64,000 nt of DNA from a virus. The notes beneath the pieces are model-generated. The model had not been told where the DNA came from and ran no database searches. It was given only the letters and a program-made list of their open reading frames with translations. Of the stretch, positions 5,437 through 62,462 are shown piece after piece. Numbering within the stretch: the stretch's first letter is position 1; each line of letters opens with the position of its first letter. The translations under genes were made by a program, and so were the position numbers. The stretch is taken from IMG/VR virus record IMGVR_UViG_3300044846_002555, positions 32,001 through 96,000 of that record; one strand, given 5' to 3'.

Positions 5437-5460
5437 ATTAAAATATGTCTTTGGTGTATT
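5419..5460 (+). terminator. 14-bp stem-loop before the tape measure gene
   Basis: AATACACCAAAGAC (5419-5432) pairs with GTCTTTGGTGTATT (5447-5460). The 3' arm runs into tandem TATTTAT motifs (5457-5468). Confidence 0.6.
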
Positions 5461-5481
5461 TATTTATAAAACAAATTTAAT

Positions 5482-7362: not shown

Positions 7363-7399
7363 AATAAAGTACAATCTATTTATAGGTAAATCAGAATAT

Positions 7400-12409: not shown

Positions 12410-12411
12410 TT

Positions 12412-19615: not shown

Positions 19616-19658
19616 ATTAAGTTTTTTCAAAATAAAAGATATTTATAAATAAAAGATT

Positions 19659-19883
19659 ATGGACACAAAATTAATATTAGACAACTATTTAGGTAAAAAT
19701 ACCAGAAGTACCGAAAAAGATTTGGGAGATGGTTCTAAACAAGTATGTGATTTAGACACAGGTGATTGTTATACTATCAGAATGAAAGATGGTTTAATTG
19801 AAAGAGTGGATAACACATTAAACAAAAATAAGAGAATTCAAGTTGAAACTTTAACAGGTGTAAAACAACTATTAAACGGTTAA
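19659..19883 (+). CDS. Hypothetical protein (74 aa)
   Basis: ATG preceded by a TATTTATA motif (19640-19647) and an A-rich leader. It contains a C-x5-C pair. Confidence 0.75.
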   Translation: MDTKLILDNYLGKNTRSTEKDLGDGSKQVCDLDTGDCYTIRMKDGLIERVDNTLNKNKRIQVETLTGVKQLLNG

Positions 19884-19887
19884 TAAC

Positions 19888-25512: not shown

Positions 25513-25517
25513 AAAAA

Positions 25518-26468: not shown

Positions 26469-26469
26469 T

Positions 26470-44500: not shown

Positions 44501-44599
44501 ACTGACGTTATTGTTTATAACTCAATTTGTTCAGTAAATGATACGGGAATCAATTTTAAATTGAATGTTGGAATAAATTTTGAAATTTTATGTAATTAA
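41582..44599 (+). CDS. Baseplate wedge protein with a P2 gpI / T4 gp7-like core
   Basis: [11 protein letters not shown]....[30 protein letters not shown], the KGT signature of gpI/gp7-like proteins. Confidence 0.65.
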
Positions 44600-47500
44600 T
44601 GGCTTGTAGTTTATCATATGTATTAACGAGTTTATCGGGAGATTGTACTAATTCTAATTTAGGTGGGTTTAGTATTGATATAACAGGAACCGCACCGGAT
44701 TATAGTATTCAGTGGGTTAGTCCTGCGTTAGGGACTATTGTATTAGGTGCCGGTGTTACAGGTTATACCGCAACAACACTGTCGGCGGGAACATATTCAT
44801 TTAATATCCTTGATTCATGTTCACCTACTATGACTTCATTACCGGTTAATATTAATATTTCTAGTGGTACATGTGCAAGTATTGTTGGGATATCAAACAC
44901 GACGTGTAATAACAATAATGGGGTATTAACAGGGCAAACTTCTAATCTTTATGGTATAAGTACGTTTAGTTTATATAATACCTTAACAGGTTTTATTACT
45001 TCAGGGGTATCATTTACTAATAATTATATTTTTAATGATTTATCTCCGGGTATATACTACGTTAATGCTGACGATGGTGGTGGATGTAGTGGTCAGAGTG
45101 AAACAACTATTATTCAACCTTCGACAAATATTACGTGGGGATTTTATACTGTAATGGATTCCGGATGTGGTAATGTTGATTCGGGAAAAATATATGTAAC
45201 AGGTCTTACCGGTAATCCACCATTTACTTATTTATGGTCAAATGGTGAAACAACAGATTTTATTACGGGTTTAACTGCGGGTGTTTATTCCGTAGTGATA
45301 ACAGATAGTTTAGGATGTACACAATCACAAAGTGCGACTGTGACAGAAGTTGACCCATTAGGATTTGGTGAATTTAGTGTGATACCTCCAACATGTTTTA
45401 ATAGTGATGGTCAAGTAACTCTTGTAATTACGGGAGGTACTGGTCCATATTATTATTCAGCATCGACAGGGGTGGTAGCAGTTTCTTTTAGTTCGTCTCA
45501 AACATTTTATAATATTGGTGGTGGACCATTTGCTGTTGAAGTTACTGACGCGGCTTTATGTAAAATAACTCCAACAACAACAATTATACCTCCAAACGGG
45601 TTTAATATTGTAAGTATAACAACAACTAATTCAAATTGTGGTAATCGTGATGGTAAAATAAATATTGAGGTAAGTGGTGGTGCAGTTCCTTTTACTTATA
45701 CTTTAACAGATTCTTTAGGTAATAGTATTATTGACCCTACTAATTTTAGAAGTTGGGCTTTTCCTAATTTAGCGTCGGGGACTTATACTTTAACTATTTC
45801 AGATAATGGGGGTTGCACTTATGTTAGTTCACCTATTTCTATAAATAATGTTCCTTTATTTACGTTTACTGCAGATACTACCGGTACAACCTGTAATTTA
45901 AATAATGGTTATGTTGCCATTACAGTATCAGGTGGTACACCGCCTTACACATATACCGTTGGGGGTGAATTTTCTTATGAATCTATTCAAACACCATTAA
46001 GTGCTTATACTTTTAATAATTTATATTATGGAGATTATTCGTTAGAAATAACAGAATCAACTCCTGGTGTTATTTGTAAGCAAACAGGTAGTTTTGAAAT
46101 AGAAACATCAAATAATGTTGATTTTATGTTATCAGGTACTAACGCTAACAATGGTAATGATGGAACAGTTTCTGCATATATTACAAATGGAATACCACCA
46201 TTCACATTATTATGGAGTAATAACGTAAATGGTCAAACAGGGTATTATTTAAGTAATTTAAGTGCCGGAACATACAGTTTACAAGTAACCGATAGTGAAG
46301 GATGTGTTAAAAATAGAGAGGTAACTATAGACGGATTTGATTCAATATCGTCGTTTCAAACGTTTAATATTTGTGATAGTGAATTTGAAAACATTGGTGA
46401 GTTAGTTAAAAAAGGACCTAAACAAATGTTGAATGAAGGGTATTATGATTTAACATCCGGATACACAAATTGTATACTTAATCAAGCGGTATTCAATATT
46501 GTCGCAACAATTGGAGTTATTACTAATATTTCACAATTTTATGTCAGTACCGCATTAAATGATTTCCCAACAGATAATGAATATTTTGACGCTTTAGTTG
46601 CGTTACTAAAAACTTTTGACCAAGTTGCTCAAGTTAATATTGACCCATTAAATAATGGGATTCAAGTGATTGCAAAATGTGAAGAACAATATTTGGTAGC
46701 AACTGATGTAACTGTTGATATGTTTATTGAATATAATATTTCTTGTCAATATTGTAGTTTACCACCAACATTAACTCCAACGTCAACACCAACACAGACA
46801 CCAACACCTACTAACACACCAACACCTGGTCAATCGCCAAGTCCAACACCTACTCAAACAATGACACCAACGCCTACTCAAACAATAACCCCAACAATGA
46901 CTAAAACTCCAACACCTACACCAACATTAACACCTACACCAACATCTAGTTCGGCTCAATTATGGTATTTATATTCGTCTTGTTTATTAGTGGATGGAGA
47001 GTCACAAGTTATCTTACAACCAATATTAGTATTACCGACATTAACTATTGGTGACGTGTTTGTTTTCAATGTACCGGATAGTAAACCTGAATGTTGGTCA
47101 TTAATTAATACTTATAATGGTTTACCATCATCAATTCCGTTTGGTGCTTTAGTATTTAATACTAATTATTTCACATCAGTATCTAACACTATTTACCCAT
47201 TTAATGAAGGTAGAGAATGTGATGAATGTCAAGAAGGTATAAATAATATTGAACCAATAACTAATAATTTTTTAGTTACAGTATATAAATCTAATTGTAA
47301 CATAACAAATATTTCACCACCATTTTACTTTTCTAATGATTCTACATTCCCAATTGATATTAGTAGTCCATTTGTTGGTGTACATTCAGGTTTTAATGGT
47401 GATTTATCCATAACCGTTGTTAGTACATTAAATCAAAGTCAATGTGTTTCCTTGATTGTAGATGGTGTAACTTATTTATCACCACAAACAATAACATTTA

Positions 47501-47601
47501 ACTATCTTGAACCTCAAACTCAAGTTGTTGAGTTTTTAAATGTAAATATATCTGAGAATTCTACATTTGAAATTAATCTGACCGGAGGGTCTTGTTTATA
47601 A
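44599..47601 (+). CDS. SprB-repeat, Cys-rich putative virion adhesin with a PT-repeat linker
   Basis: Repeated G-x-I-x-V-x-x-GG-x-x-P-Y/F-x-Y..L-x-x-G-x-Y-x-x-x-V-x-D-x-x-GC units. PT tract at about 46762-46950. Confidence 0.7.
46762..46950 (+). repeat. Pro-Thr mucin-like repeat
   Basis: [63 protein letters not shown]. Confidence 0.9.
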
Positions 47602-47602
47602 T

Positions 47603-47638
47603 AAAAAACCCCCTCGTTAAAAGGGGGTTATTTTTTTT
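47603..47638. terminator. Bidirectional terminator between convergent gene blocks
   Basis: A run, AACCCCCT-cgttaaa-AGGGGGTT, T run, at the +/- strand junction. Confidence 0.8.
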
Positions 47639-48236
47639 ACCATATTTTTTCTTGTTTCATATGACCTATAACACAACAGTAAGCATCTGTTTGGTCAAAA
47701 TTTTCTTTTTTCAGGGTATTGTTTCTTGTATATAACCAAGTGATTTGAGGTTCTTTTTTGGCTATTAAATCCCATATAATCATTTTCTTGTCAATGTCTT
47801 TAGGAAGTCCTCCGAATAGTACGTATTTACCTTTATCATTTAATTGAGTTAACTCCGGAAAGGCGAATTTACGAGAATTGTATGTTGATATAAAATCAGG
47901 TACGACACCTAATACATCATATATCTCTTTAGTAACTAAAGTATTGAACCTTAATAAAGTTTGAACTGTGTAAACATTGTTTGAGTTCAATAAAGGTTCT
48001 TCAATAATAACTTTAGTAATACCCATGTCTTTATATTCTAAAAGTTTAGTTCTAAAGATTTGACCTTTTAGAAGTAATTCTTTTATTTTATTTTCTTCTT
48101 TTGGTTTTGGAACGGGTGATATATGAGTTAATTCAAGTAGTTGTTGACTTTGTATATCAAATAACGCCCAACCAATTGTTTTTGTACTCACATCTAATCC
48201 TAAAACTTTAGGACTTTCTTTAAGTGTTTTTTTCAT
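47637..48236 (-). CDS. ruvC: RuvC-like Holliday junction resolvase
   Basis: VLGLDVSTKTIGW, VIIEEP and DQTDAY supply the D/E/D-x-x-D catalytic set. Confidence 0.8.
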   Translation of the reverse strand: MKKTLKESPKVLGLDVSTKTIGWALFDIQSQQLLELTHISPVPKPKEENKIKELLLKGQIFRTKLLEYKDMGITKVIIEEPLLNSNNVYTVQTLLRFNTLVTKEIYDVLGVVPDFISTYNSRKFAFPELTQLNDKGKYVLFGGLPKDIDKKMIIWDLIAKKEPQITWLYTRNNTLKKENFDQTDAYCCVIGHMKQEKIW

Positions 48237-48242
48237 AATTTA

Positions 48243-50732
48243 TTAGAAATCAAATTTAACCAAAAACTGTTGAATCCCTTGTCTTAACACAGGAGATTGT
48301 AGCTTTGATACAATCATAAGATTCATATCAGAATCGTAAAGCCCAATTTCAGTAATATATGAACTTGTTCCTTTAGTCCATGTAGGGTTTGATGTTGATT
48401 GAAACTCTGCTTGACCAAGATTAATCTTATATTTCATTTCATAAATGGTTGCTTCAATATCCGTTTCTAATGAACCGTAGAAATAATATTCATCACCAAA
48501 ATTTAATGAAGGTGAAGTTGTATTATTATCTACTAATGGAATGAATAGATTTAAGTTATAATCATCAGCCGCTGCATAGTTTTCTTCAGTGATTGTAAAT
48601 GTTGTTCCTGTTAAACTATCTACGGTTAAATAACCATTGATTGTGGTTGCACTTATTTGAGGTGTAAAATCAATTATTTTCCAATCATTCGGGTCAGGTC
48701 TACCTGTACCAATTACTTTTTGACAAATAACTTGGAATGTGTCAGCGTAAAACCCTGTTATTAAGTCACAGGAAGGACACAGAGTCGTTGTTGTTGTCGT
48801 TGTGGTAGTTGTGGTTGGAATTAACGTTGGTTGGTTTAAACAAGGGAATTCAGCTCCAAATCTAATTGAAACGTTTTGTTCAGTTAAACCTCCACAAGAA
48901 ATGTTTGGTCCTTGAATTTTGGTGTAGTAATTACAATGTAATGAATTCGTAAAAATATCGGTATTACTAAATCTATAAGTTACGTACATATATTCAGTGT
49001 CCGCTGTTAATATACCGTTAACTGTTGGTTGATTATTCTCAACCACACAAGTGTTAGGTGTTGTTAGACCAACTTTAGGTGCGGGTAATGTCCAGTTACG
49101 ATTTGACTTGTAAGACATTGCTGCGATAATCTCCTCATCATCAATTATAATAATTTGTGAATCAGGGAACACTTTACCAACTCTACTTGGTAACCCGTTA
49201 CTATTTGGATGGGTGTCCCAAAGTTGATAATATCTAATACCCGGCATATTCATATCCGTATTTTTAGTAGAATATAAATACTCAACTTCAAATAATGGAC
49301 TTCCTTCATCAGTTAAGTCATCAAAACCCGGTGGGTCAACCCAAAAAGTTTCACCTTTACAACATTCAGGATTTTTATGCCACATTAACCAAGGTAAATG
49401 TAATCTAAAGTTACGAGCTTCACCCGTTGTATCTGTAGGATTATTAGGGTCGTAAGGTTCAAAGGCAAATTTCTCACCATAGAAGAAATCAATTGATTGA
49501 TTAGTATAGTGAATAATAGCAATAGCTTTTTGCTCACTTGGTTGAACAACAACTTGTTCATCAAATGAATTATAATAATAAACAACACTTGTATCGGTTT
49601 GTCCACTATCTGACATATATCCAAAATATTCTTTACTACCTAAATAAGACGCTGAACCAAAATATTGATAACCTTTATAAAATGAATCATACAACCCAGC
49701 AGGATTTTCCGACCAAGGAATATTCATATTCCAAATTTTAACATCGGACTCGTCTGTACTACATAAAGATTCAAAATTAATAACATTTTGATTCCAATGA
49801 GAACTTGGTGTAACACTATCGTATATTGTAGTCATATTTGGTGGGTATACTAATACTCTAGCAAAACATCCACTTGAAAAGTTTGAAAAATCAGGTGTTG
49901 GTCTGTCTAATGTATAATGACCTAAACAAATATCCACAATTTTATAAGTTAATATCGGATAACAACTACTCATTGACATCTCACAGTTAGGTGGAGTCGG
50001 AGTCGGAGGTAATGGTGTTGTACAACAAGTTGAGGAAGGTGTTGGTGTAGGTGTAGGTGACTCACATAAATAAGTTGTTTGAGTTGGTGTTGGTGTAGGG
50101 GTTGGTGAAGAATCTATTGATGGTGTTACTGTTGGAGTTGGGGTTGATGTTGGTGTTACACCTGGTTCACAATAACAATTATATTCTCCTTGACCATCAT
50201 AATATATTGTAACAAAATCACCAATCATTGGTAATCTTACAATATTTGAATTACACCCTGAATATACTAATTGAATAACACTACCACCTGTTAATGTAGA
50301 CATATCTACAAGATAGTTAGAGTTAATTGTATATTGGCTATTTGTTAACGCACTCCAATTAATTGTAGTTGCGGTTGTATTACCTGTAAAAAATCCTCTC
50401 ATAGCCGCTCTATTATATACAGTTTGAGGAACTGACGCCATATAAGGGATTCCATATGTATTACCGGTTATTCCGTCAACATAATATGGATATTTAACAT
50501 TTTGTTTGTTAGATTCAGGTTTACCTGTTGAATTTTGAGCATTAAACGCTGGCTCAAGAATTTTTGTTGAGGTTTGATTATAAGGTGTTCCGGTTAATGT
50601 ATTATAAGACACTTCACTATCACCTACTTGAAAATAAGATATGTTAAAACTACCTTCTGATAGTTTTTGTCTTGCAGTATCGGTTAGTCTTGTACTAAGT
50701 AAACCTTGTGTATTTTTTAATATGTATCCCAT
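48243..50732 (-). CDS. Tail-collar/fibre-attachment-like structural protein with PT and Thr tracts
   Basis: N-terminal LTDTARQKLSEG.FNISYFQVGDSE and C-terminal ITEIGLYD....MIVSKL resemble phage tail-collar fibre domains. It contains TPTPTP tracts. Confidence 0.6.
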   Translation of the reverse strand: MGYILKNTQGLLSTRLTDTARQKLSEGSFNISYFQVGDSEVSYNTLTGTPYNQTSTKILEPAFNAQNSTGKPESNKQNVKYPYYVDGITGNTYGIPYMASVPQTVYNRAAMRGFFTGNTTATTINWSALTNSQYTINSNYLVDMSTLTGGSVIQLVYSGCNSNIVRLPMIGDFVTIYYDGQGEYNCYCEPGVTPTSTPTPTVTPSIDSSPTPTPTPTQTTYLCESPTPTPTPSSTCCTTPLPPTPTPPNCEMSMSSCYPILTYKIVDICLGHYTLDRPTPDFSNFSSGCFARVLVYPPNMTTIYDSVTPSSHWNQNVINFESLCSTDESDVKIWNMNIPWSENPAGLYDSFYKGYQYFGSASYLGSKEYFGYMSDSGQTDTSVVYYYNSFDEQVVVQPSEQKAIAIIHYTNQSIDFFYGEKFAFEPYDPNNPTDTTGEARNFRLHLPWLMWHKNPECCKGETFWVDPPGFDDLTDEGSPLFEVEYLYSTKNTDMNMPGIRYYQLWDTHPNSNGLPSRVGKVFPDSQIIIIDDEEIIAAMSYKSNRNWTLPAPKVGLTTPNTCVVENNQPTVNGILTADTEYMYVTYRFSNTDIFTNSLHCNYYTKIQGPNISCGGLTEQNVSIRFGAEFPCLNQPTLIPTTTTTTTTTTTLCPSCDLITGFYADTFQVICQKVIGTGRPDPNDWKIIDFTPQISATTINGYLTVDSLTGTTFTITEENYAAADDYNLNLFIPLVDNNTTSPSLNFGDEYYFYGSLETDIEATIYEMKYKINLGQAEFQSTSNPTWTKGTSSYITEIGLYDSDMNLMIVSKLQSPVLRQGIQQFLVKFDF

Positions 50733-50762
50733 GTGATATAAATATTCTTATTTTTTTTATTT

Positions 50763-51788
50763 TTAATTGACACTTATTATTTCTACTCTACAACATCCAC
50801 AACCACTAATACTAGCGTTACCAATTGAGAATAAATCCTGACTTGATGTGTAAGTACAAGGTGTTAATGGGTCGTTTTGTGTTATTGTCGTTGTTGTGTT
50901 TAATATAATATTGTCTGAAGACGTAAAATTTAACGAATTCCAACTTTCGGTATAATAATCTAAATAATTAACTAAATTTTGGCAACCTTGTATTGGATTA
51001 TAATCAGTGTTAGTTGTTGTTAAACCACTTGTTGTTAGTGGAATAGAAACATTATTTTTAGATAATATAGTATTAGTCGTTAAAGTTGCTGTGGTAGCGC
51101 TTGGTGAATAATAAAAAGTGTTATAATGTAATATGTTAAAATTAACCGTAATACCACTTGGTAATGCCGGAATTACACTAAAAGTTGTTGTGTATTGTTT
51201 AGTTAATGTTGTATTTGTGTTAACTGGATTTGTTATTGTTGTATTTAATTTTAATTGATATAATGTCGGAGGTGCCGGCGCATTCAATGTCACGTTATTA
51301 CTATTAGTATTACCACTCGAATCAATAACCTTAACACTATATATTCCTGAACACAAATTAGTAAATGTTGGGGAATTAAAATATGTAATACCATTATCAA
51401 TTGAGTATTGATAAGGTGGATAACCTCCCGACGCGGATACCATTAAATTACCATCACACGTACAAATTGGTTGATTAACACTAAAAGTCAATGAGTTAAC
51501 TCCTAATGGGTTACAAACCCCTTCATTTACTACCACAGTCCCGTTGGCTCCTAATATATACCAAGAGTTAAGCGGGGGTACTGATGATGGTAATGAAGAA
51601 AACATCAAATAAGATAAATTACCACCTGTTAGTTTCCATTTATTAATAGAAGTGTCCCAAGTGATTAAATAAGTATAATCGTCTGACACCCATTGATTGT
51701 AATCATTAGAATCAACACCATAAGGGTTAAAATGTATTTGTAAATTATCTATACTTGAATTTAAACAAAAATTATATTCTATTTCCAT
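50763..51788 (-). CDS. SprB-repeat-containing Thr/Asn-rich putative virion protein
   Basis: DGNLMVSASGGYPPYQYSIDNG..FTNLCSGIYSVKVIDS. The likelier start is ATG 51788, 2 nt after the upstream stop; the track uses 51815. Confidence 0.6.
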   Translation of the reverse strand: MEIEYNFCLNSSIDNLQIHFNPYGVDSNDYNQWVSDDYTYLITWDTSINKWKLTGGNLSYLMFSSLPSSVPPLNSWYILGANGTVVVNEGVCNPLGVNSLTFSVNQPICTCDGNLMVSASGGYPPYQYSIDNGITYFNSPTFTNLCSGIYSVKVIDSSGNTNSNNVTLNAPAPPTLYQLKLNTTITNPVNTNTTLTKQYTTTFSVIPALPSGITVNFNILHYNTFYYSPSATTATLTTNTILSKNNVSIPLTTSGLTTTNTDYNPIQGCQNLVNYLDYYTESWNSLNFTSSDNIILNTTTTITQNDPLTPCTYTSSQDLFSIGNASISGCGCCRVEIISVN

Positions 51789-51790
51789 AA

Positions 51791-52351
51791 TTAAGTTGTT
51801 GAAGTTAATTGACATATAGTACTTGCTGTAAAATCACCCCAATAATCAACAACAGTCACAGGATAAGAACCAACAGGTAAATTCATAACCGCGGGGCTAA
51901 TATTCCCTAATACAGGACCACCCCAAATATATTTATAAGGTGGTGTACCACCGGTTATTGAGACAGATACTCTACCATCATTTGATGTTGGGGTTGTTGG
52001 GTTAATCGAATCACACTCAATTGTCATTGGGAATACCGTTATTACATCACATTCATTAGATTGAATAAAAGTAATTGCTGGTTGTGGTGGAGGTGGGGGA
52101 AAACAACTATAAGCATTTTCAATACAATCAGAGCAATCGGGATATAATACGACACTTCCATTTCCCGCATCATATATTAATGACCCGGAAAGTATTGGTC
52201 CTTGTATTAGAGTTGCACATCCACTGAATGAAGGTATTGTTATTGAATAAACACTACCTAAAATCGGGAAAGGTAAAGTAAGGTCATTTACTCCGAAAAA
52301 ATTATCGGATTCATCAAATTTTTCGCAACATTTTTTAAAATAATATATCAT
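51791..52351 (-). CDS. SprB-repeat-containing protein (186 aa)
   Basis: DGRVSVSITGGTPPYKYIW...LPVGSYPVTVVD. TATTTATA lies upstream at 52373-52380. Confidence 0.65.
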   Translation of the reverse strand: MIYYFKKCCEKFDESDNFFGVNDLTLPFPILGSVYSITIPSFSGCATLIQGPILSGSLIYDAGNGSVVLYPDCSDCIENAYSCFPPPPPQPAITFIQSNECDVITVFPMTIECDSINPTTPTSNDGRVSVSITGGTPPYKYIWGGPVLGNISPAVMNLPVGSYPVTVVDYWGDFTASTICQLTSTT

Positions 52352-52371
52352 TATAATTTGTTTCAGTTATA

Positions 52372-53352
52372 CTATAAATAATCCTTTATTTGTTTTTTCA
52401 CCAAAGATTTCATAACTTCCACATATTTTTTTGTTGAACTTTGAGAACTTACATAATCAAAAAAGTTAATATCCTCTTTTAATTTATCTAATGGGTTAAT
52501 ATTAATAAAATCTCCTTTATAAAATTTATCTTGTTTTTGGTTACCGGTTACTCCTGCCATATGAAGAATTGGTTTATCTTCATATATTTTTATTGAGTCA
52601 GTTGCCCATGAAAATTCAAACTCGGGTGTAATTCTTGTCTCAATTCCGTGTAACCATAAGTTCCATAATAATGACCACATTTCTGCGGTCCAAAATTGAA
52701 TTTCACCGGGACTTATTGGGAATCTTCTTTGATAATCTAACATTTGGTCATATAGTGGAACACAATCTGCATAAATTTTTTCCCATAATAACCAATCGGT
52801 GTTTTTAATTAGGTATTGACCACCACCTGAATTTTCTTGATTACATTCGATACATTCGACTGAAACACCAATAACATCAGCCATTTCGTTAAGTAATTGA
52901 CCTTTACCGGATGTAGGGTGAGCACTTTCATAACGATTACAACAATCCATAATATAATTATATCCGATATAACCTATGGTATCGGATAAGTAAGTAATAT
53001 CGTCATTAATTAAACTATCAAAATTTGGTAATTTTCTAAATATAATATCAGAGTCGTGTAAGAAAAAACATTTACCATATTCAGGAAAATCTTTTAACCA
53101 TTTTGAAATTAAAAAAGGTTTAACTGTTGGTATATAATGTTTTTGAGGTCTATCGTCAATATAATGATGTACGTTAACACCCGTATCTTTTAATTTTAAA
53201 GATTCTTCAGTTGGTTTACCATCTTCACTTATTATTCCAAGTAATACGTGTATTTGATTTGGGGGGACACCATGTTCAATAAAGTTATGTATATATACCA
53301 TTATTTGCCAATGGAAATATGGTACATCAGGTTGAGCTGTAACAAAAATCAT
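52372..53352 (-). CDS. GT-A glycosyltransferase resembling peptidyl O-glycosyltransferases (GT96 SGT1 / GT95 HPAT-like)
   Basis: Motifs PYFHWQ, YIPTVKP....KWL, FFLHDSDIIF (DxD), WTAEMW and ILH occur in the same order as YFDWQ, YPAINKP..HWL, LDADM, WISEMY and H of the plant enzymes, as recalled from memory. Confidence 0.7.
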   Translation of the reverse strand: MIFVTAQPDVPYFHWQIMVYIHNFIEHGVPPNQIHVLLGIISEDGKPTEESLKLKDTGVNVHHYIDDRPQKHYIPTVKPFLISKWLKDFPEYGKCFFLHDSDIIFRKLPNFDSLINDDITYLSDTIGYIGYNYIMDCCNRYESAHPTSGKGQLLNEMADVIGVSVECIECNQENSGGGQYLIKNTDWLLWEKIYADCVPLYDQMLDYQRRFPISPGEIQFWTAEMWSLLWNLWLHGIETRITPEFEFSWATDSIKIYEDKPILHMAGVTGNQKQDKFYKGDFININPLDKLKEDINFFDYVSSQSSTKKYVEVMKSLVKKQIKDYL

Positions 53353-53430
53353 AATAATTAAAACGTTTTTAATTAAATATAAATGACAATCAAATGTAAT
53401 AAATGGTAAAGATGATGATATTTATATAAT

Positions 53431-53601
53431 ATGAAACTGATTAGAACAATATCAAATTTGGTTACAGAATCTAAAAGAATTTACGAAGAGGCCTGTGAAA
53501 AAGGTGTCAACGAAAAAGAATTAGATAGATTAGAAAAAAACTACAATGAATCTTTAAAACTTTTAAAGTTGTACGAAGGTTTAGGTAAAAAAACGGAATA
53601 A
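53431..53601 (+). CDS. Small hypothetical protein (56 aa, below the ORF track cutoff)
   Basis: MKLIRTISNLVTESKRIYEEACEKGVNEKELDRLEKNYNESLKLLKLYEGLGKKTE. TATTTATA sits at 53421-53428, and the ORF fills the gap to the converging gene. Confidence 0.7.
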   Translation: MKLIRTISNLVTESKRIYEEACEKGVNEKELDRLEKNYNESLKLLKLYEGLGKKTE

Positions 53602-53603
53602 TA

Positions 53604-56600
53604 TTACGTTCCGTAAACTATTTCAATACCTTCAATGTGTATAGTCCATCTTAAAGTTTCTCCAACAACACCGGTTACCTGTATGTCTAAAGCGTCATTA
53701 GTATCGTCAGCGGTAATTGCAACGTCATAAGATGAGTTAGTTTCTACATCAGTACCAATAGTTGATACAGTACCGATTAAAGAAGTTACTCCACCTACAT
53801 TCTTAATCGCAACTTTTCTTATATAGTGAGCTCCTCCTGAACCATCTGATTTAATACCACCAATATTTACTGTAACAAACATTGCAGTTCCTGCAATTAC
53901 GGATATAAGTTGAGTTGTTCCATCTAAAAATATATTAACTGGTGTCGCATTTGTTGTTTTATTTCTACCAACTAAGTCAATTTGTTGTGATGTTCCTTTT
54001 ATTAAACCATTAAAACTACCTGAAGAAAAAGACCTTTGACCGAAACGAGGTGCACATGATAATGTTCCACCAAGAATTGATGAATAACAACCTGTGGTAG
54101 TGTTGCCACAACCTCCACCAATAAATGAATGGGTACCACATGAAATATTTGATATACCACCAACAATTGCCGAACAACCACTAAACACGACATTTCCATT
54201 ACCACCACCAACAAAAGAACCTGATGAACAAACCCCATTTACGTTTCCACCAACAATTACAGATAGGGTTGTACTTGATAATGCGGGTGTTGCAATACAG
54301 TTTGATTGACCACCACCAATAAAGTTAGAATCACCATGAGTTCTATTTGACATACCGCTAACAATTGCTGAGTATCCATATACCCATTGGCATGTAATAC
54401 AGTTTCCATTACCCCCACCTATAAATGAAAAACTTAAACGAGTTGTATTATTATTACCCCCACCAATAAATGAAGAGTTTCCTATAGTAATATTACAATA
54501 ACCACCACCAATTGTTGAACATCCCCCACTTGAATTATTCTTTTGACCACCACCAATTGTTGAAGTATCTCCTGATGAGATATTATTATATCCACCACTG
54601 ATTGTTGAAGTGGCTCCTGATAAACGGTTTTTAGCTCCACCTCCAATTGTTGATATTCTACCACATATCACATTACTATAACCACCACTAATTGTTGTGA
54701 AATAACATGATGATGATGTATTATCACAACCACCGGCAATTACCGAACAATTTCCACAAGCGCGATTTTTATATCCACCACCAATTGTTGAGGTAGCACC
54801 GGATGAGACATTACATCTACCACCAACAACAGTTGACCAACTACCTGAAGATAAATTACAAACCCCACCACCAATTGTTGAACACGCCCCTGATGCGATG
54901 TTTCTATAACCTCCACTTATTGTTGATAATTTACCCGCATTAAATGTACAAGTTGGACTAGTCGTTACAGCTCCTGTTGTAAAGTTAAATGTTCCTCCAC
55001 TAGTATTATTAAAAATACCACCACCGATAGTTGTACCTAAAGAACAACATTCGTTATTTGGTGATTGTATTCTATTATTAAGACCACCACCAATTGTTGA
55101 AAATCTTGCATTTATTATGTTAATACAACCACCACCAATTGTTGAAGTATAACCTGAAGAATTATTATTACTACCACCACCAACAGTTCCAAGTATTCCG
55201 TAGACACGATTGTCAATACCACCCCCAATTGTTCCACCATCACCAAAAATTCTTTGTGATTGACCACCACTAATCGTTGCTCCTAAACAATACACAACAT
55301 TTAATGCACCTCCTCCAATGGTTGAAGTATTTCCGCTGATTACATTATCAATTCCACCCCCAATGAATGAATCACTACCCGATACACTATTAGACCTACC
55401 ACCACCAATTATTGAACATAAACCTGATGCGGTATTCTTACAGCCACCACCAACAAATGAACAATTTCCTGATGCGGTATTACAAAAACCACCTAAAATT
55501 GATGACCTTAAACCTGATGCGGTATTACATTGACCACCACTTACTGTTGAATAATTACATGATGATATATTTTTAAAACCACCACCAATTGTTGAACAAA
55601 CCCCTATGGCTTGATTACAAATTCCTCCGGCAATTGTTGAAGTAGTTCCTGTTGCGATATTATTACATCCTCCCCCAATTGTTGAACTATTACCCACAAC
55701 AAAATTTTTACAACCACCACCAATAAATGAATGGGTACTTGTTATAGTATTTTGACTACCACCAACAATACTTGAAGTGGCTCCTGATACTGTATTACCA
55801 ATACCTCCACCAATAAATCCTTGACAAAATCCACCTGAACTTGTTGTAAAATTTCGTAAAAATGGTTGTGAGGAAGAAAAAGGACTCACAGAGACAGTTG
55901 CACCACTAACATACAAGTTTGTATATGGTGAGGAATATGTTTGTCCTGTAATAACTACGTTTCTACTACATCCGAAGTTATCATATGTTAATAAAAGGTC
56001 GTTTACGCTAAATGATGATAATTGATTCCCGAACAATTGTAATGTACAAGTATTTGCGGAATATGAACTTATTAGTTGAGAATTGCCTATAAAGTTTAAT
56101 GTTCCACCTCCAATTATAGAATGTCTTGCGTAACTTACGTTAACGCTTCCACCCCCAATAACACCAAATTCTAACACAACTTTATTATTATTACCACTTA
56201 CAATACCACCACCATAAGAACATTGAGCCAAACAGTTACCACATCCTCCTAAAATTGCTGCTCTAACTCCATATGTTTTATTAGCTGTTCCACCGGCTAT
56301 AACACCATCTTCACCAACACCTGTTGTTCCTGATATTAAGTTACCTCTACCTCCACCAATAAATCCGAATTCGTTACATATTTTATTATTTGTTCCACCT
56401 GCGATTACTGAATTTGATGGGTTCATTGTATTACTAGTTATACAATTGTAAAAACCACCACCTATTGTAGAATATGTTCCACAAACGAGATTAAGTCTAC
56501 CACCGGCAATTGTTGAGTTATTACAACATGTTGTATTACAACAACCACCACCAACAAATGAAAAACATCCTGATGATGTATTTCCTAATCCACCACCAAT

Positions 56601-58775
56601 AAATGAACAAGCACCACATGCACAATTTGATATACCACCACCAATCGTTGAATGACTTCCACATGATATATTAGACTCACCACCACCAATTGTTGAGTAA
56701 TTACAATATGTTCTATTATACGAACCTCCGGCTATTGTTGAACAATTACCGTAAGTGCAATTGTGATTACCGCCACCAATAAATGAATTATAACCTGACG
56801 ATAAATTATTAGTACCATTACCAATAAATGAGTATTGACCACTAGCGACATTATAACTTCCCGCCCCAATAAATGACGAATAATTACTTGATGTATTACT
56901 TGAACCACCACCTATAAAAGATTTAATACCGCTAGCAGTATTTTGTTGACCTCCAACAACACTTGACGCATTTCCACTTGCGGTGTTTAATACTCCCGCT
57001 CCAATAAACGAGCCGTATGAACCACTTGCGTTATTACAATAACCCCCACCGATAAATGACCAATTTCCTGTTGATGTATTTTTACAACCACCACCAATAA
57101 ATGAATGTGTTCCTCCACTAACTATATTTTGTCGTCCACCAACCACAACTGAAAAATCTGTTGTTGCAGAGTTTGATAAACCACCTAATACTGCACTACA
57201 ATTTCCTGATGCAAGATTACTAACACCACATCTAACAGATGAGTTAACGCCTGTTCCTGTAATGATTACGGCTGATGAACCACCTCCACCACCGGCAATA
57301 GGTACTAAAAGTCCATTTGTACTAACTCCAACATAACAACCACTACAAGTACTCATAGAAGTAATAATCATGTCGTTAACAAATGTCGTACAATCTCTAT
57401 TTGATGTTATATTTGAACCAATAATGAAAGATTCATTATTTGAAACCGTATTATTCACACCTCCGGCTATAAAACTTCCAACACCAATGGCGTTATTTGT
57501 TCCACCACCAACTATTGATGAAAGAACACCACTTGCGGTATTTGAACCAAACGAATTCCCACCACCACCTACAAATGAACGATATCCTGATGCGGTATTA
57601 CCGCAACCTCCACCAACAAAAGAACCATCACACGACGCGGTATTCTTACTACCACCACCAATTGTTGAGGTAGTACCTGATGCTATATTACAAAAACCAC
57701 CACCTATTGTTGAATCATTACCTGATGATATGTTAATACGTCCACCACCAATGAATGAACAAGTTCCTGATATTGAATTACATTGACCACCGGCAATTGT
57801 TGATTTATCACCACAAACGGTATTTGATTGACCACCTCCAATAGTTGAACTATCACAATAAGCTTTATTACCACCACCTCCGGCAATTGTTGAGTTGTTG
57901 GATAAGGCTTGATTACAATAACCACCACCAACGGTTGCGTCACCATTATTTGGATATGGTCCGGTAACACAAGCTATATTATATCCACCACCTGCAATAG
58001 TATTTCTTGGTCCGACAACAAGATTACAACAACCACCACCTATTGTTGATGTATTTCCTGATATTCTATTTAAATGACCACCACCAATAAATGAATGAGT
58101 TCCTCCGCTAATAACGTTTTGACAACCTCCACCAATTGTTGCTCCGGATGTTGTTAATATGTTACAAAATCCACCACTTATAGTTGAATCATTATTTGAT
58201 ACCGTATTACAACGACCACCTCCAATTATTGAGCAACAACCCGATACGACATTACAATAACCACCACCAATTGATGAAATAAATCCTGAAACCTCATTTC
58301 TACATCCACCACCAATAATTGAGGCATTCCCTGACGCAGTATTTCTAGTACCACCACCAACAGTTGAAGCGAAACTTCCTGATATATTACAACGACCACC
58401 ACTTATTGTTGAATAACAACCTGCGTTATTATTTTTATAACCACCACCAATTAATGAATGTGTTCCACCACTAACTATATTTTGTCGTCCACCAACAACC
58501 ATTGAATAATTTGTTGTTGCTGAATTTGATAACCCTCCTAACGCGCCGGAATTATTACCACATGCTAGATTATTAACATCTCTTCTAATTGATGAGTTAA
58601 CACCTGTTCCACTTACAATTACAACAAATGGTGAACCACTAATTGCTTCGTCAATTGTTGATTTATATGATGAACCTGCAGGATTCTGAGTCGGGTTATT
58701 AGTATCAACAATGTGAATTAATGTTTGATTAGTTGTAAACCCTGATGGTGAATATGTTCTTTGAGTTAAAATCAT
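53604..58775 (-). CDS. Gly/Cys-rich 14-residue-repeat fibre/adhesin (beta-roll, YadA-head-like)
   Basis: 1723 aa, mostly S-[TF]-I-G-G-G-x-x-N-x-x-S-G-x units in three blocks, with a non-repetitive C-terminal beta domain. Confidence 0.7.
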   Translation of the reverse strand: MILTQRTYSPSGFTTNQTLIHIVDTNNPTQNPAGSSYKSTIDEAISGSPFVVIVSGTGVNSSIRRDVNNLACGNNSGALGGLSNSATTNYSMVVGGRQNIVSGGTHSLIGGGYKNNNAGCYSTISGGRCNISGSFASTVGGGTRNTASGNASIIGGGCRNEVSGFISSIGGGYCNVVSGCCSIIGGGRCNTVSNNDSTISGGFCNILTTSGATIGGGCQNVISGGTHSFIGGGHLNRISGNTSTIGGGCCNLVVGPRNTIAGGGYNIACVTGPYPNNGDATVGGGYCNQALSNNSTIAGGGGNKAYCDSSTIGGGQSNTVCGDKSTIAGGQCNSISGTCSFIGGGRINISSGNDSTIGGGFCNIASGTTSTIGGGSKNTASCDGSFVGGGCGNTASGYRSFVGGGGNSFGSNTASGVLSSIVGGGTNNAIGVGSFIAGGVNNTVSNNESFIIGSNITSNRDCTTFVNDMIITSMSTCSGCYVGVSTNGLLVPIAGGGGGSSAVIITGTGVNSSVRCGVSNLASGNCSAVLGGLSNSATTDFSVVVGGRQNIVSGGTHSFIGGGCKNTSTGNWSFIGGGYCNNASGSYGSFIGAGVLNTASGNASSVVGGQQNTASGIKSFIGGGSSNTSSNYSSFIGAGSYNVASGQYSFIGNGTNNLSSGYNSFIGGGNHNCTYGNCSTIAGGSYNRTYCNYSTIGGGESNISCGSHSTIGGGISNCACGACSFIGGGLGNTSSGCFSFVGGGCCNTTCCNNSTIAGGRLNLVCGTYSTIGGGFYNCITSNTMNPSNSVIAGGTNNKICNEFGFIGGGRGNLISGTTGVGEDGVIAGGTANKTYGVRAAILGGCGNCLAQCSYGGGIVSGNNNKVVLEFGVIGGGSVNVSYARHSIIGGGTLNFIGNSQLISSYSANTCTLQLFGNQLSSFSVNDLLLTYDNFGCSRNVVITGQTYSSPYTNLYVSGATVSVSPFSSSQPFLRNFTTSSGGFCQGFIGGGIGNTVSGATSSIVGGSQNTITSTHSFIGGGCKNFVVGNSSTIGGGCNNIATGTTSTIAGGICNQAIGVCSTIGGGFKNISSCNYSTVSGGQCNTASGLRSSILGGFCNTASGNCSFVGGGCKNTASGLCSIIGGGRSNSVSGSDSFIGGGIDNVISGNTSTIGGGALNVVYCLGATISGGQSQRIFGDGGTIGGGIDNRVYGILGTVGGGSNNNSSGYTSTIGGGCINIINARFSTIGGGLNNRIQSPNNECCSLGTTIGGGIFNNTSGGTFNFTTGAVTTSPTCTFNAGKLSTISGGYRNIASGACSTIGGGVCNLSSGSWSTVVGGRCNVSSGATSTIGGGYKNRACGNCSVIAGGCDNTSSSCYFTTISGGYSNVICGRISTIGGGAKNRLSGATSTISGGYNNISSGDTSTIGGGQKNNSSGGCSTIGGGYCNITIGNSSFIGGGNNNTTRLSFSFIGGGNGNCITCQWVYGYSAIVSGMSNRTHGDSNFIGGGQSNCIATPALSSTTLSVIVGGNVNGVCSSGSFVGGGNGNVVFSGCSAIVGGISNISCGTHSFIGGGCGNTTTGCYSSILGGTLSCAPRFGQRSFSSGSFNGLIKGTSQQIDLVGRNKTTNATPVNIFLDGTTQLISVIAGTAMFVTVNIGGIKSDGSGGAHYIRKVAIKNVGGVTSLIGTVSTIGTDVETNSSYDVAITADDTNDALDIQVTGVVGETLRWTIHIEGIEIVYGT

Positions 58776-58805
58776 TGGTTTTTGTTTTATACTATAAATA
58801 GTTCA

Positions 58806-59111
58806 TTATTGGAAATCGAATATCTCAAAGTCCATAAATTCAAAATATTCGTAATCTTGGAATTGTTTTGGAACTGGTGGTAATAAGTTACAATATACCA
58901 CTTCAAATCTTTCACAACCATCCCCATAAATAACTTTAATACCTACTGCGGCAACATTATTAAATTGTGGAGGTAAGACAATAACATTATCCGGAGGTAC
59001 TGATGTAACAATTGTTGCAATTAATATACATTGGTTACCATAAACATCACACGCATAAATTGTATACGGGAAGTTTGAACCTGTAATTGATTGTATGTTA
59101 ATTGCTGTCAT
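58806..59111 (-). CDS. Small beta-rich hypothetical protein (paralog of 62247-62462)
   Basis: I..ITG..P..IY.CD....I.TI......PP......IKVI....CE pattern shared with the 71-aa ORF. Confidence 0.7.
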   Translation of the reverse strand: MTAINIQSITGSNFPYTIYACDVYGNQCILIATIVTSVPPDNVIVLPPQFNNVAAVGIKVIYGDGCERFEVVYCNLLPPVPKQFQDYEYFEFMDFEIFDFQ

Positions 59112-59114
59112 ATG

Positions 59115-61319
59115 TTAAAAAGCGTATGATGGGTTAAATGATGTAACTACCCCATTAACAACTGTTACCGCTGTAACGGGATAGTTTGATGTGGTTATTG
59201 CACCATTAACAATTATATTTGAGTTGATTGTGAAAGTGTTACTTGTAACTCCTTGTGTCACTTCAAAGTCATAAAGAGTTACCTCTTGACGTTTAGATTG
59301 ACCTGATGATAATGTTCGTCCTTTAGAACTGTAATCACATGTTTGTGATGATAATGAGGGTATTTGTATATATGGTGAACTATTACCCGAAAAAGGGATG
59401 GTTGAATTATATGTGTCACAAAAATTGTAAAAACCATAAACCCTATATTTTGGATTATTTTGTGATACTAAATTTATATAACTATATTTAGCAAAAGGGT
59501 CAATATATCTTGAACCGGTATTATTGGTTAATACTCTATTATTACTTGTGGCAATTGATGAATTATTAATATTAGTTACAATAGAATTTGTAACAAATTC
59601 ACAACCAACATCACAATTTGTAAAATTTAAATTATTTTGAATTGTTGGCATTGTTATTTTTAAGGTATAGTTATTAGAGGTCTCACCTGTTTCTACAATA
59701 CTTGAAAAGTGGATATTATAAGTCAATTCCTCAATATTATCACCACAAGGTTGATTATTTGGTGTGTTAGGTATTGAAAGTATTGCGTATTGATAATAAA
59801 GAATATTTGTTGAGTCATTAATCCATCCAGACGATGATTTTTTCGATTCATAAGATGATTTATATGCGATTAAATCACTTAAATTACTAAAAGTCATATT
59901 AATAACACCTTCTACTGATGGACCTGGTATATTTTTTATAAATGAAATAGTATTTGTGTTTTGAAGTGAGCAAGAGATTTGTCCACCAATCGGTTGTAGG
60001 TTACATTGAACATAGTTTGTAGTTGTGTAAGCCTCGCGAGTTATTAATGAAGTTGTATTATTACAGAAAACTTGTTCAAAATTATTATTAATATTTACTG
60101 ATGTTTCTGTTGCCATATACTTATAAATGTCAGAGTTTGTAATTGCGGATGTGGTACATCCTGATAGATTAAATTTAATAGTGTTTAGACCACAAGAAGC
60201 AGGGATGTTTATAATAGATGAAGTATCTATTTTATATGGGCTGTTTAAATAATCATCTAAACATAATGAACAATCAAAAGTATCTAAACAAGTAAAATAA
60301 AAATCCCAATTGGTTTGTTGATTATTTGGATTCGGAATCACTTCTAAAATTAAATAATCGCCAGGATTTCTAGATAATGATGTTAATGAAGTCACTTTAG
60401 ATAAATAAGTACTATCTGGAATCCCGGAATTAATAAATGAACGCGTTGATGCTGATTTAGGTAATGTTAATAAATTTAAATTTGTAACGGTATCAACACC
60501 TATCGTTATAAATTCTAAAATAATTGGTTCACTATATGATGAACCATAAAAAGTGATTTTAAGAGTGTCAGGGACATTATTACCTTTAAACTTCCATGCA
60601 AAATAATCAGTTGTTGCTGATAATTCAAATGTTGAATTTATTGCTAATGGGATTACACCTGCCGCGGCACCGGCAAAATTAACTCTATGAGTATAATCCC
60701 CCTCTTCAGTTCCATTATCACATCTAAATGGTGCAACATTAACAGTTATTGCGTTAAAACAATCTAACTCGGCTTGTATATAATTAGTACCACCTGTTTG
60801 AGAGAAATTAAGACCATCTAATTTAACTTTATCGATTATTGGAATATAATTTCCGGCTGGTTGCATTAGATTGGATAGTGGGTGTGTATTTTCGTAGGGT
60901 GAAAATTCACTACCATAACCTGATGTAAACGCTAATTGATTAGGGTTATCAGGTCCGTACCAAAATATTCTATAATCAGATATTGTGTTTTGACAGCTAC
61001 CGGTTAATTCTCCCGCAACTATTACTCCAACAGTATTAGTTTCATAATCCTCAAATCCTAATTCACACGTTTCACATAAATCGTTAGATAATATATCAAT
61101 AGTAACACAACATTTTGATAATGTATCAATAATTTTAATAATTGTTGTCCCGTCAGGTACATTACCCATAATGTATGGACAGTTGTTAAATAATTGAGAA
61201 TAAGTTACGTTTGATTGGAACTCATTAAAAAATTGGTCAACATTAGAATAAATGTTGAATAACCCTCCTAATGGTATTGTACCGGAATTTGTTAAACAAG
61301 TTGATGCTGAAAATGACAT
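59115..61319 (-). CDS. Cys/Asn/Thr-rich putative virion protein (734 aa)
   Basis: Long ORF in the minus-strand structural cluster. No catalytic motif recognised. Confidence 0.6.
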   Translation of the reverse strand: MSFSASTCLTNSGTIPLGGLFNIYSNVDQFFNEFQSNVTYSQLFNNCPYIMGNVPDGTTIIKIIDTLSKCCVTIDILSNDLCETCELGFEDYETNTVGVIVAGELTGSCQNTISDYRIFWYGPDNPNQLAFTSGYGSEFSPYENTHPLSNLMQPAGNYIPIIDKVKLDGLNFSQTGGTNYIQAELDCFNAITVNVAPFRCDNGTEEGDYTHRVNFAGAAAGVIPLAINSTFELSATTDYFAWKFKGNNVPDTLKITFYGSSYSEPIILEFITIGVDTVTNLNLLTLPKSASTRSFINSGIPDSTYLSKVTSLTSLSRNPGDYLILEVIPNPNNQQTNWDFYFTCLDTFDCSLCLDDYLNSPYKIDTSSIINIPASCGLNTIKFNLSGCTTSAITNSDIYKYMATETSVNINNNFEQVFCNNTTSLITREAYTTTNYVQCNLQPIGGQISCSLQNTNTISFIKNIPGPSVEGVINMTFSNLSDLIAYKSSYESKKSSSGWINDSTNILYYQYAILSIPNTPNNQPCGDNIEELTYNIHFSSIVETGETSNNYTLKITMPTIQNNLNFTNCDVGCEFVTNSIVTNINNSSIATSNNRVLTNNTGSRYIDPFAKYSYINLVSQNNPKYRVYGFYNFCDTYNSTIPFSGNSSPYIQIPSLSSQTCDYSSKGRTLSSGQSKRQEVTLYDFEVTQGVTSNTFTINSNIIVNGAITTSNYPVTAVTVVNGVVTSFNPSYAF

Positions 61320-61333
61320 ATATATTTTAAATT

Positions 61334-62245
61334 TTAAGTTTTAGTATAAGCATAACCTTCTAATCCACAAGTAGTGATACATTCTGAAGGCATTCCTGAT
61401 GGAGTTACTGTTGGTGTCGGTGATGGTGTTGGTACAATTGATTCAGAACAGAAAATACAATCCGCACCTATTTGACTTCCATAAGGTCCAATTAGTAATG
61501 TAATGTTATCAATACCAATTGTGTTATTATTTATACCCATATAACTGATACAAATAATTTCACCATTAACATTCGCTTGATAAACTTCAAATTGTGTGAT
61601 AGTATTACCGGTAGGTGTTATAATTTGATTAGTTGTGAATAACATCTTACCTGTACCATAACACTCTTGGAATTGATAACTATAAGGACATACTATATTG
61701 TCGTCTATAGTGTTAAATGTTACCCCACCTTCAAAAGTACAATCACGACTAATCACCGGTGACGATGATGGTGTTATTGTTGGAGTTGGAGTTGGTGTTG
61801 GTGACACACTTTGAATTGTTGCGCTTATAATAACATTACATAAGTTAGTTGGTGTCGGAGTTGGTGTTGGTGTTGAGGTTGTTGTTGGAGTTGGAGTAGG
61901 TGTAGGTGTTGCGGGAAAATCACAATCAAAAATAGCTGAAAAATTTAAACTTGAACAATTTTGAGTTGGACTAGGTGTGGGTGTTGGACACGCTCCACTT
62001 GAGAAATAAACATCATCTAAATCCGGACATGGGTTAAAACAAGGTGACTGACCTGATAAATCACAAGTTCCGTCTAAAGCGGTTGATAAACACCATTGAG
62101 TTGACCCTGTGTTATAATAAATAAATAATCCATTTGTTTGACCGGTCCAATATAGTTCGGAGTTATGTGTCCCGGCACTAAAATAGATATCATCAAATGT
62201 TGGGTAACCAGTGTTTGAAAGGCAATATATTGAACTACACGGCAT
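61334..62245 (-). CDS. Cys-rich protein with several Pro-Thr tracts (303 aa)
   Basis: PTPTPSPT, PATPTPTPTPTTTSTPTPTPTPT, SPTPTPTPTITPSSSP and PTPSPTPTVTPS. Confidence 0.7.
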   Translation of the reverse strand: MPCSSIYCLSNTGYPTFDDIYFSAGTHNSELYWTGQTNGLFIYYNTGSTQWCLSTALDGTCDLSGQSPCFNPCPDLDDVYFSSGACPTPTPSPTQNCSSLNFSAIFDCDFPATPTPTPTPTTTSTPTPTPTPTNLCNVIISATIQSVSPTPTPTPTITPSSSPVISRDCTFEGGVTFNTIDDNIVCPYSYQFQECYGTGKMLFTTNQIITPTGNTITQFEVYQANVNGEIICISYMGINNNTIGIDNITLLIGPYGSQIGADCIFCSESIVPTPSPTPTVTPSGMPSECITTCGLEGYAYTKT

Positions 62246-62246
62246 A

Positions 62247-62462
62247 TTATAATGTTAAATTTAAAATTGATTCACAATTATTGTCATCAATAACTTTTAT
62301 GTTAAAAGATGTTAACGAACTCCAAATAGGTGGTATTGTTACATTATATGGAAACGTTGAAATTGTGTCTATATATATTGATAAAGTAATAGGGTTATCG
62401 CATAGATACACTTGAAAAGGCGATGCTCCGGTAATATTACTTATAGTTATTTGTGTGCTCAT
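62247..62462 (-). CDS. Small hypothetical protein (71 aa), first gene of the minus-strand block
   Basis: ATG at 62462, with sense-strand TATTTAT at 62480-62486. Confidence 0.7.
   Translation of the reverse strand: MSTQITISNITGASPFQVYLCDNPITLSIYIDTISTFPYNVTIPPIWSSLTSFNIKVIDDNNCESILNLTL

Follow-up and report, generated by a model that had tools for sequence, protein, structure and literature searches.

What does a large bacteriophage do with a glycosyltransferase whose gene lies among genes for long, threonine-rich proteins of its own? The question is raised by a stretch of viral DNA of 64,000 nucleotides (hereafter the window), bases 32001-96000 of the 142,859-base IMG/VR record IMGVR_UViG_3300044846_002555, in which an enzyme of 326 amino acids (aa) is encoded on the minus strand at 52372-53352. 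CheckV estimates the completeness of the record at 46%, and near-identical relatives of it are found on contigs of 290-322 kilobases (kb). The phage is a large myovirus that encodes a tail sheath, a tube, a baseplate hub and gp25-like and gp6-like wedge proteins, together with ribonucleotide reductase, a UvsX-like recombinase, a DnaB-like helicase and a primase, and the guanine-plus-cytosine (GC) content of the window is approximately 32%. It looks similar to a published group of large aquatic phages for which Bacteroidota hosts are predicted and whose core genes include several glycosyltransferases (PMC12619734). A preliminary description of the window proposed that the enzyme is akin to the plant SGT1/HPAT glycosyltransferases and that it O-glycosylates the phage's own virion proteins, in which long proline-threonine (Pro-Thr) tracts had been noted. 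Our comparison of phage sequences leads to a modified answer: the enzyme would put sugar onto runs of consecutive threonine (Thr) residues in the phage's own structural proteins, a reading to which we assign a probability of about 0.65.

The four motifs on which the preliminary description had based its assignment are all present in the translation of this open reading frame (ORF), namely PYFHWQ at residues 11-16, YIPTVKPFLISKWL at 73-86, the DxD motif HDSD at 99-102 and WTAEMW at 221-226. Across 54 aligned relatives with identities of 31-56%, W15, Y73, D100, D102, Q219 and M225 do not vary at all, and conservation is 90% or higher at P8, Y12, W221 and W226; the motifs are thus not chance strings. 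The aspartate pair of the DxD motif (H99-D100-S101-D102) is also invariant in larger sets of 139 and 84 relatives, and H264, invariant or nearly so among the relatives, is likely to be the third metal ligand; D100, D102 and H264 together fit the DxD-plus-His metal site of GT8 enzymes. The protein belongs over its full length to phrog_4417, an uncharacterised phage protein family (E 2.8e-68, residues 1-317 against profile positions 1-291 of 293), and its relatives amount to 1374 in a 90%-clustered database and to 813 representatives of 50%-identity clusters. No Pfam family, Glyco_transf_8 included, was matched by hmmscan of the enzyme at E ≤ 1, no glycosyltransferase family was matched in a Pfam scan of the 54 relatives, and a search of all PDB chains with the enzyme sequence and with the 54-sequence profile returned nothing relevant.

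The fold is more informative than the sequence. An AlphaFold2 model from the 54-sequence alignment reached a mean confidence (predicted local distance difference test, pLDDT) of 97.9 and consists of a single compact globular domain whose first Rossmann strand stands at the very start; inspection of the sequence showed no signal peptide or membrane segment, no dedicated predictor having been run. Foldseek placed the model against 288 PDB chains at E ≤ 0.001, and among the chains listed nearly all are glycosyltransferases, while VIA-align gave 115 chains at Z ≥ 8. The solved structures that fit best are glycogenin (Z 15.2, the highest), the Skp1 alpha-galactosyltransferase GlaT1 of Toxoplasma (14.8), LgtC of Neisseria (14.3), pneumococcal GlyE (13.8) and the catalytic domain of UGGT (13.7), with further matches to WbbM, LARGE1 and A64R, the capsid glycosyltransferase of chlorovirus PBCV-1 (Z 11.3). 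Cytoplasmic proteins or the glycans linked to them are the substrates of several of the top matches, glycogenin and GlaT1 among them, and GlyE belongs to the glycosylation of serine-rich-repeat proteins. In a viral structure library the sole close matches were two phage proteins that are themselves uncharacterised; viral GT8-like proteins came next. We are confident that the 326-aa protein is a soluble nucleotide-sugar transferase with a DxD-containing GT-A fold, as had been proposed, and it is probably a retaining enzyme closest to the GT8/GT24 type. Enzymes of this type share the fold over 214-247 aligned residues (Z 13.7-15.2) as well as the DxD motif and a C-terminal histidine; identity to them is, however, 6-13%, the TM-scores are 0.45-0.51 and there is no Glyco_transf_8 match, so that by sequence the enzyme stands as a family separate from CAZy GT8, with a likeness at the fold level only.

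The proposed kinship with plant enzymes is less certain. PF23452, the HPAT model, gave no match to the enzyme by hmmscan at E ≤ 1, and searches with PF23452 and PF23741 (DUF7164) on this genome alone, up to E ≤ 10 for HPAT, found none; since 14 control genomes were silent too, these single-genome searches are weak evidence. One of the 54 relatives touches PF23452, at E 0.09. The single positive lead is from the ESM Atlas, where PF23452 occurs in 19 of the 30 nearest named clusters (on 10% of the members in the one cluster whose share is shown) and DUF7164 in six others. A profile search of longer proteins for plant SGT1 returned no plant protein and 18 fused microbial or viral forms. What the plant and algal HPAT (GT95, PF23452) and SGT1 (GT96) enzymes would have in common with the phage enzyme is the proposed chemistry, a direct transfer to a peptide hydroxyl within a tract rich in Pro, Ser or Thr; the phage enzyme does not match PF23452, and its closest solved folds are of the GT8/GT24 type, among which both protein-acting and lipo-oligosaccharide enzymes are found.

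It is the joint gain and loss of the gene and of Thr-only runs that points to an acceptor. In 75 of 80 viral contigs carrying an enzyme of 55-99% identity, one or more Thr/Pro-rich ORFs lie within 10 kb of it; the five exceptions end early on the downstream side. In this phage's own lineage we anchored the comparison on an 829-aa protein (48243-50732, minus strand), which is the best candidate acceptor beside the enzyme, looked for the enzyme gene within 10 kb, and removed duplicates. The protein contains a Pro-Thr tract at residues 190-249 (49986-50165, minus strand) and a run of 11 Thr at residues 640-650 (48783-48815, minus strand), which would be the glycosylation tag. A run of at least five Thr accompanies the gene in 35 relatives and never occurs without it, whereas five relatives have the gene only and 15 have neither (Fisher p 1.3e-9). 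The corresponding counts for Pro-Thr repeats in the same protein are 38, 13, 2 and 2, which is no association (p 0.30); the expected pairing of the enzyme with Pro-Thr tracts therefore failed in its own lineage, and the feature tied to the enzyme is the Thr-only run and not the Pro-Thr linker. From one relative to another the 11-Thr run differs in length and copy number, and it is missing in all 15 that lack the gene, while Pro-Thr repeats at the site of residues 190-249 persist in relatives without the enzyme. A tree of the 829-aa protein requires five or more changes of gene state, and every gene-less row is without the run. No homologue of the enzyme was found anywhere in two complete gene-less relatives (322 and 257 kb), and matches to a six-Thr codon pattern number 2 and 0 in these two versus 10-15 in three gene-bearing ones. 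The 829-aa protein itself is not restricted to gene-bearing phages: it has homologues in 441 viral contigs and occurs throughout the sampled relatives.

The same pairing is seen far outside this lineage. By tblastn the family was found in 77 deposited phage genomes, with hosts that are mostly Lactobacillus, Enterococcus, Staphylococcus, Lactococcus and Clostridium and in one case Chryseobacterium. In three phages, phiCTP1 of Clostridium, iLp84 of Lactobacillus and VPE25 of Enterococcus, the homologue lies inside the module of head or tail genes. In phiCTP1 a small head protein and the tail tube have C-terminal Thr tails, in iLp84 the capsid protein and a tail protein each end in seven Thr, and in VPE25 a tail protein carries a C-terminal Thr tail. 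In Chryseobacterium phage MA9V-3 the homologue, unannotated there, follows directly after two ORFs with Thr/Ser runs of 34 and 74 aa. Just before the enzyme gene of iLp84 (5620-5997 of that locus) lies a 125-aa protein with a 58-residue Thr tract; it is annotated as "major tail protein", and we regard it as a small Thr-tract protein. The phages iLp1308 and CL2 have the same module and a capsid protein 98% identical to that of iLp84 without the enzyme gene, a different 59-aa protein replacing the 125-aa one, and their capsid and tail proteins end without a Thr run, in IPKP and GSGTGA. Among 70 viral contigs of the Lactobacillus casei group that bear the capsid protein and enough flanking DNA, 37 have both the capsid Thr tail and the enzyme gene, 33 have neither, and none is discordant. 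For the tail protein, which lies 3 kb from the enzyme gene across four conserved genes, 51 of 55 loci agree (33 with both, 18 with neither, 4 discordant). A small set of VPE25-like tail proteins forms a third lineage, four with gene and tag and three without. The enzyme family and Thr-only runs thus appear and disappear together across unrelated phages, for which reason these phages probably sugar-coat their own particles. The earlier idea that the virion is O-glycosylated is supported, by comparison, in so far as the family is tied to Thr-rich tags in unrelated phages; Pro-Thr tracts as the acceptors are not.

Thr runs are also conspicuous within this genome. The 143-kb record contains eight runs of at least five Thr in six ORFs, where 0.07 would be expected from amino-acid composition, an excess that we put at roughly 100-fold over chance. 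Besides the 829-aa protein, the tail sheath has a Thr/Ser-rich insert in an N-terminal extension (421-504, plus strand) with a run of six Thr at 442-459; the sheath ORF starts before the window and ends at 2886, it was identified by phrog_23 (E 3e-48), and it is the sole tagged protein of the window with a certain virion role. Another six-Thr run (10484-10501, plus strand) falls in a 1669-aa ORF between the baseplate hub and a wedge gene. None of the tags in the window is C-terminal; they lie inside the sheath and fibre-like proteins. In a 28-sequence alignment approximately 59% of the columns of the 829-aa protein are conserved outside the tracts, and the structure predicted from that alignment (pLDDT 49.5) was too poor for a search, the tracts lying in low-confidence segments. 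Outside the window, a 281-aa cysteine-rich ORF at 19591-20436 of the full record (G000:C1, whose numbering is also used for the other loci upstream of the window below) has three runs of six to seven Thr separated by CC and CPC motifs, and sits between a cluster of glycosylation genes and a family B DNA polymerase.

If the enzyme acts as we propose, a cytoplasmic, metal-dependent transferase would move sugar from a nucleotide-sugar donor to the side-chain hydroxyls of Thr runs before or during virion assembly, thereby turning these stretches into short, mucin-like glycopeptides displayed by the particle at its surface. The fold, the DxD motif, the family, the co-variation and the fusions to other sugar enzymes are observed; the acceptor, a direct linkage to Thr, the donor sugar and any effect on the virion are inferred. 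Candidate acceptors would be the 11-Thr run of the 829-aa protein, the Thr/Ser insert of the tail sheath and the Thr run of the 1669-aa protein; as judged from the pattern of co-variation, Thr runs are likely acceptors here rather than Pro-Thr linkers. No GT2 or GT60-like gene was found in iLp84, phiCTP1, VPE25 and MA9V-3 in a search that covered these two families only, which is consistent with the enzyme working alone or adding the first sugar.

The logic is that of mycobacteriophage virion glycosylation, and what is new is the enzyme family, the tag and the host range. To our knowledge the family (phrog_4417, for which there is no Pfam model) differs from the mycobacteriophage glycosyltransferases. 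In the mycobacteriophages Che8, Corndog and Myrna, glycans are described at the C-termini of capsid and tail-tube subunits (Freeman et al. 2023, Cell Host Microbe 31:1216, as cited in PMC12619734), and phage glycosyltransferases are there proposed to decorate the phage's own structural proteins; relatives of our enzyme are likewise paired with C-terminal Thr tails. The combination of a phage glycosyltransferase with Ser/Thr-rich tags on virion proteins occurs both in these relatives and in the present genome. Unlike the mycobacteriophage system, which belongs to phages of Actinobacteria, the one proposed here would be that of phages of Firmicutes and Bacteroidota-type hosts and of large aquatic phages, and its predicted tag is a pure Thr run that is internal in the window. 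Within the literature searched, virion glycosylation of tailed phages is reported only for mycobacteriophages (PMC12619734), and the searches returned no description of this family, whether by PHROG or Pfam name, or of phage proteins that bear poly-threonine tags; in agreement with the preliminary description, no paper was found that links this enzyme type to virion glycosylation.

The enzyme appears to belong to a larger glycosylation gene set that had gone unnoticed in the preliminary description, and would be an accessory addition to it that serves Thr runs. Upstream of the window an 18-kb sugar-gene cluster (1639-19544) encodes three GT9-like proteins, a sulfotransferase, two FkbM-type and two other methyltransferases, GT1, GT34-like and GT2 proteins, an HtrL/YibB-like protein and a 1038-aa fusion of GT1, GT9 and FkbM domains. 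It also contains a GT60-like enzyme (PF11397, E 5.6e-71; 15626-16873), directly preceded by a 296-aa ORF consisting largely of Pro-Thr repeats (14670-16873 spans both). PF11397 is the Skp1 hydroxyproline N-acetylglucosamine (GlcNAc) transferase family, and CAZy GT60 also holds the polypeptide alpha-GlcNAc transferases that in trypanosomes attach the first sugar of mucin-type glycans to Thr. It is this partner gene that matches the GT60 polypeptide alpha-GlcNAc transferases (Dictyostelium Gnt1 and the Trypanosoma cruzi mucin type); GT60-like domains are also fused to relatives of the window enzyme, the partner gene itself being a different protein. The GT60-like gene is present in five of five relatives tested, including those without the window enzyme, and it may be part of a lineage-wide system that serves Pro-Thr tracts.

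Fusions of the enzyme domain also speak for the proposed reading. A Pfam domain scan of 84 long relatives out of 139 aligned representatives found it fused almost only to sugar-enzyme domains (GT7C, GT2, GT60-like, O-FucT, GT6 and GT25), the other partners being methyltransferase, radical-SAM/SPASM and galactose-binding domains. In metagenomic sequences the domain is fused to radical-SAM/SPASM, to a methyltransferase, and to GT1, FkbM and GT2 domains together in a 1915-aa protein (63% identical), which suggests that modified sugars may be built on the same acceptor.

Such a setting raises the main alternative, namely that another transferase, GT60-like or from the host, starts the glycan on Thr and the enzyme adds the next sugar, in the manner of GlaT1 on Skp1 and of GlyE. 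Its closest folds include the pure extenders GlaT1, GlyE, LgtC and XXYLT1, the domains fused to its relatives include GT60-like and O-FucT ones, from families that initiate glycans on polypeptides, and the genome has a GT60-like gene along with many other transferases. We nevertheless consider an extender role unlikely: small phages carry the enzyme gene without a GT2 or GT60-like gene, relatives with neither the enzyme nor the Thr runs have the GT60-like gene too, which therefore does not explain the pairing of the two, and glycogenin, the top fold match, both starts and extends its chain. Modification of a host-envelope glycan (lipopolysaccharide, LPS; teichoic acid; capsule), for instance to block superinfection or to change the serotype, would leave the Thr runs as unrelated linkers. 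LgtC and WbbM, of the GT8 type, act on lipo-oligosaccharide and O-antigen, and the upstream cluster has GT9-like and HtrL/YibB-like families known from LPS core synthesis; yet the co-variation with Thr tails is perfect or nearly so at two separate sites and in three lineages, the gene lies within head and tail modules and not in lysogeny modules, and the compact single-domain model has no export or membrane segment that was visible by inspection (a dedicated predictor was not part of the analysis). The family, moreover, occurs alike in phages of Gram-positives and of the Gram-negative Chryseobacterium, and we know of no envelope glycan common to both, all of which makes an envelope target improbable. 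Phage glycosyltransferases are classically DNA-modifying, and a role in glycosylating modified bases of the phage DNA against restriction is the default one given to the glycosyltransferases of related large aquatic phages (PMC12619734). This is very improbable here: no gene of the thymidylate-synthase/dCMP-hydroxymethylase family was found in the 143-kb record, which covers approximately 46% of the genome, no hydroxymethylase is annotated in the flanks or complete gene tables of the 34-59 kb phages examined, and both the place in structural modules and the pairing with Thr tails would be left unexplained.

The remaining possibility is that there is no functional link, the Thr runs and the gene being merely co-inherited and the enzyme having another acceptor, and here the points that weigh against our own reading have to be counted as well. 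The whole case rests on co-occurrence and fold, and co-occurrence counts are inflated by shared ancestry: the own-lineage tree gives three to five independent contrasts, for which a sign test is not significant. In the L. casei group the capsid tail adjoins the enzyme gene, so that both could move as one cassette; five relatives with the gene have no Thr run in the neighbouring 829-aa protein; and the six-Thr codon-pattern count has a noisy control. The fold in turn does not fix the acceptor, because its neighbours include glycan extenders and lipo-oligosaccharide enzymes (LgtC and WbbM). The tagged minus-strand proteins of the window are putative virion components, and the model of the 829-aa protein failed. 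Mere co-inheritance is hard to reconcile, on the other hand, with a pairing that recurs in Lactobacillus, Enterococcus, Clostridium and Chryseobacterium phages and in the aquatic lineage with enzymes only about 35% identical, with a tail-protein tag that follows the gene from 3 kb away across four conserved genes, and with an abundance of Thr runs in this genome some 100 times that of chance, and we think there is little to be said for it. Glycosylation of the phage's own Thr runs is therefore the reading we retain. A wider version of it, in which one enzyme and a poly-Thr tag form a portable minimal O-glycosylation system across phages of many phyla, here standing beside a GT60-like/Pro-Thr system that is elaborated by the 18-kb set, is put forward tentatively, as a possibility that we would not yet favor.

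The surroundings of the gene bear out the label of virion genes in part only. The enzyme gene lies inside a 15-kb minus-strand block, from 62.4 to 47.6 kb, that converges on a plus-strand baseplate/fibre operon with gp25-like and gp6-like wedge genes upstream, and a bidirectional terminator-like hairpin (47607-47629) stands where the two meet. A promoter scan of the window found 91 candidates versus 89.6 expected in shuffled sequence and is thus uninformative on transcription units. The last gene of the plus-strand operon encodes a 1000-aa protein (44599-47601) with five SprB repeats and a Pro-Thr tract at residues 720-786 (46756-46956, plus strand), and a 303-aa cysteine-rich protein (61334-62245, minus strand), for which profile scans gave no family match, has Pro-Thr at residues 110-164 (61754-61918) and 271-284 (61394-61435). 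The Pro-Thr tracts reported earlier in these two ORFs and in the 829-aa protein are real, the last of the three having the 11-Thr run in addition. That all of them belong to a block of virion genes is true of the plus-strand baseplate/fibre operon, the minus-strand ORFs offering only SprB repeats and a weak Hoc-like match.

Directly downstream of the enzyme gene is a 186-aa SprB-repeat protein (51791-52351, minus strand). A 99%-identical relative has a 750-aa protein in this place (11002-13254 of the relative's locus), of which the window retains only residues 1-180; in the relative the protein continues into a Pro-Thr tract of approximately 100 aa and then into a repeat-rich C-terminal part. 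The slot downstream of the enzyme is a variable cassette, and in the window the 186-aa ORF passes straight to a 350-aa ORF (50763-52351 for the two together). The 350-aa protein (50763-51815, minus strand) matches the SprB repeat at E 1.7e-4 and the Hoc-like head-decoration family phrog_2973 at E 0.0064, both below the curated cut-offs. Directly upstream of the enzyme gene a 1723-aa repeat protein (53604-58775, minus strand), fibre-like and with weak matches to beta-roll and UspA1 repeats, is probably a long fibre. Its ORF has a GC content of 37%, compared with approximately 32% elsewhere, and a strong negative GC skew, near -0.3, over 54-58 kb. The block ends beside the bidirectional terminator with a 199-aa ORF (47637-48236, minus strand) that weakly matches a RuvC-like Holliday-junction resolvase. 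Farther away, a 512-aa ORF on the minus strand of the full record (25050-26588) contains a complete Fe/Mn superoxide dismutase (E 3e-39 and 3e-22) and approximately 280 further residues.

Several members of the family are cultured phages with gene-less near-twins, and the hypothesis is thus directly testable. If it is true, sugar-coated particles would be common both in large aquatic phages and in those that infect lactic acid bacteria, enterococci, staphylococci, clostridia and Bacteroidota, and, should the wider two-system version also hold, the particle of the present phage would bear two kinds of mucin-like glycopeptide with modified sugars. Such coats would bear on the recognition of phages by the immune system and by mucus, on dairy and therapeutic phage biology, and on the way in which cryo-electron microscopy and mass data for capsid and tail proteins are read, and an enzyme that recognises Thr runs would be useful for producing defined O-glycoproteins in the bacterial cytoplasm.

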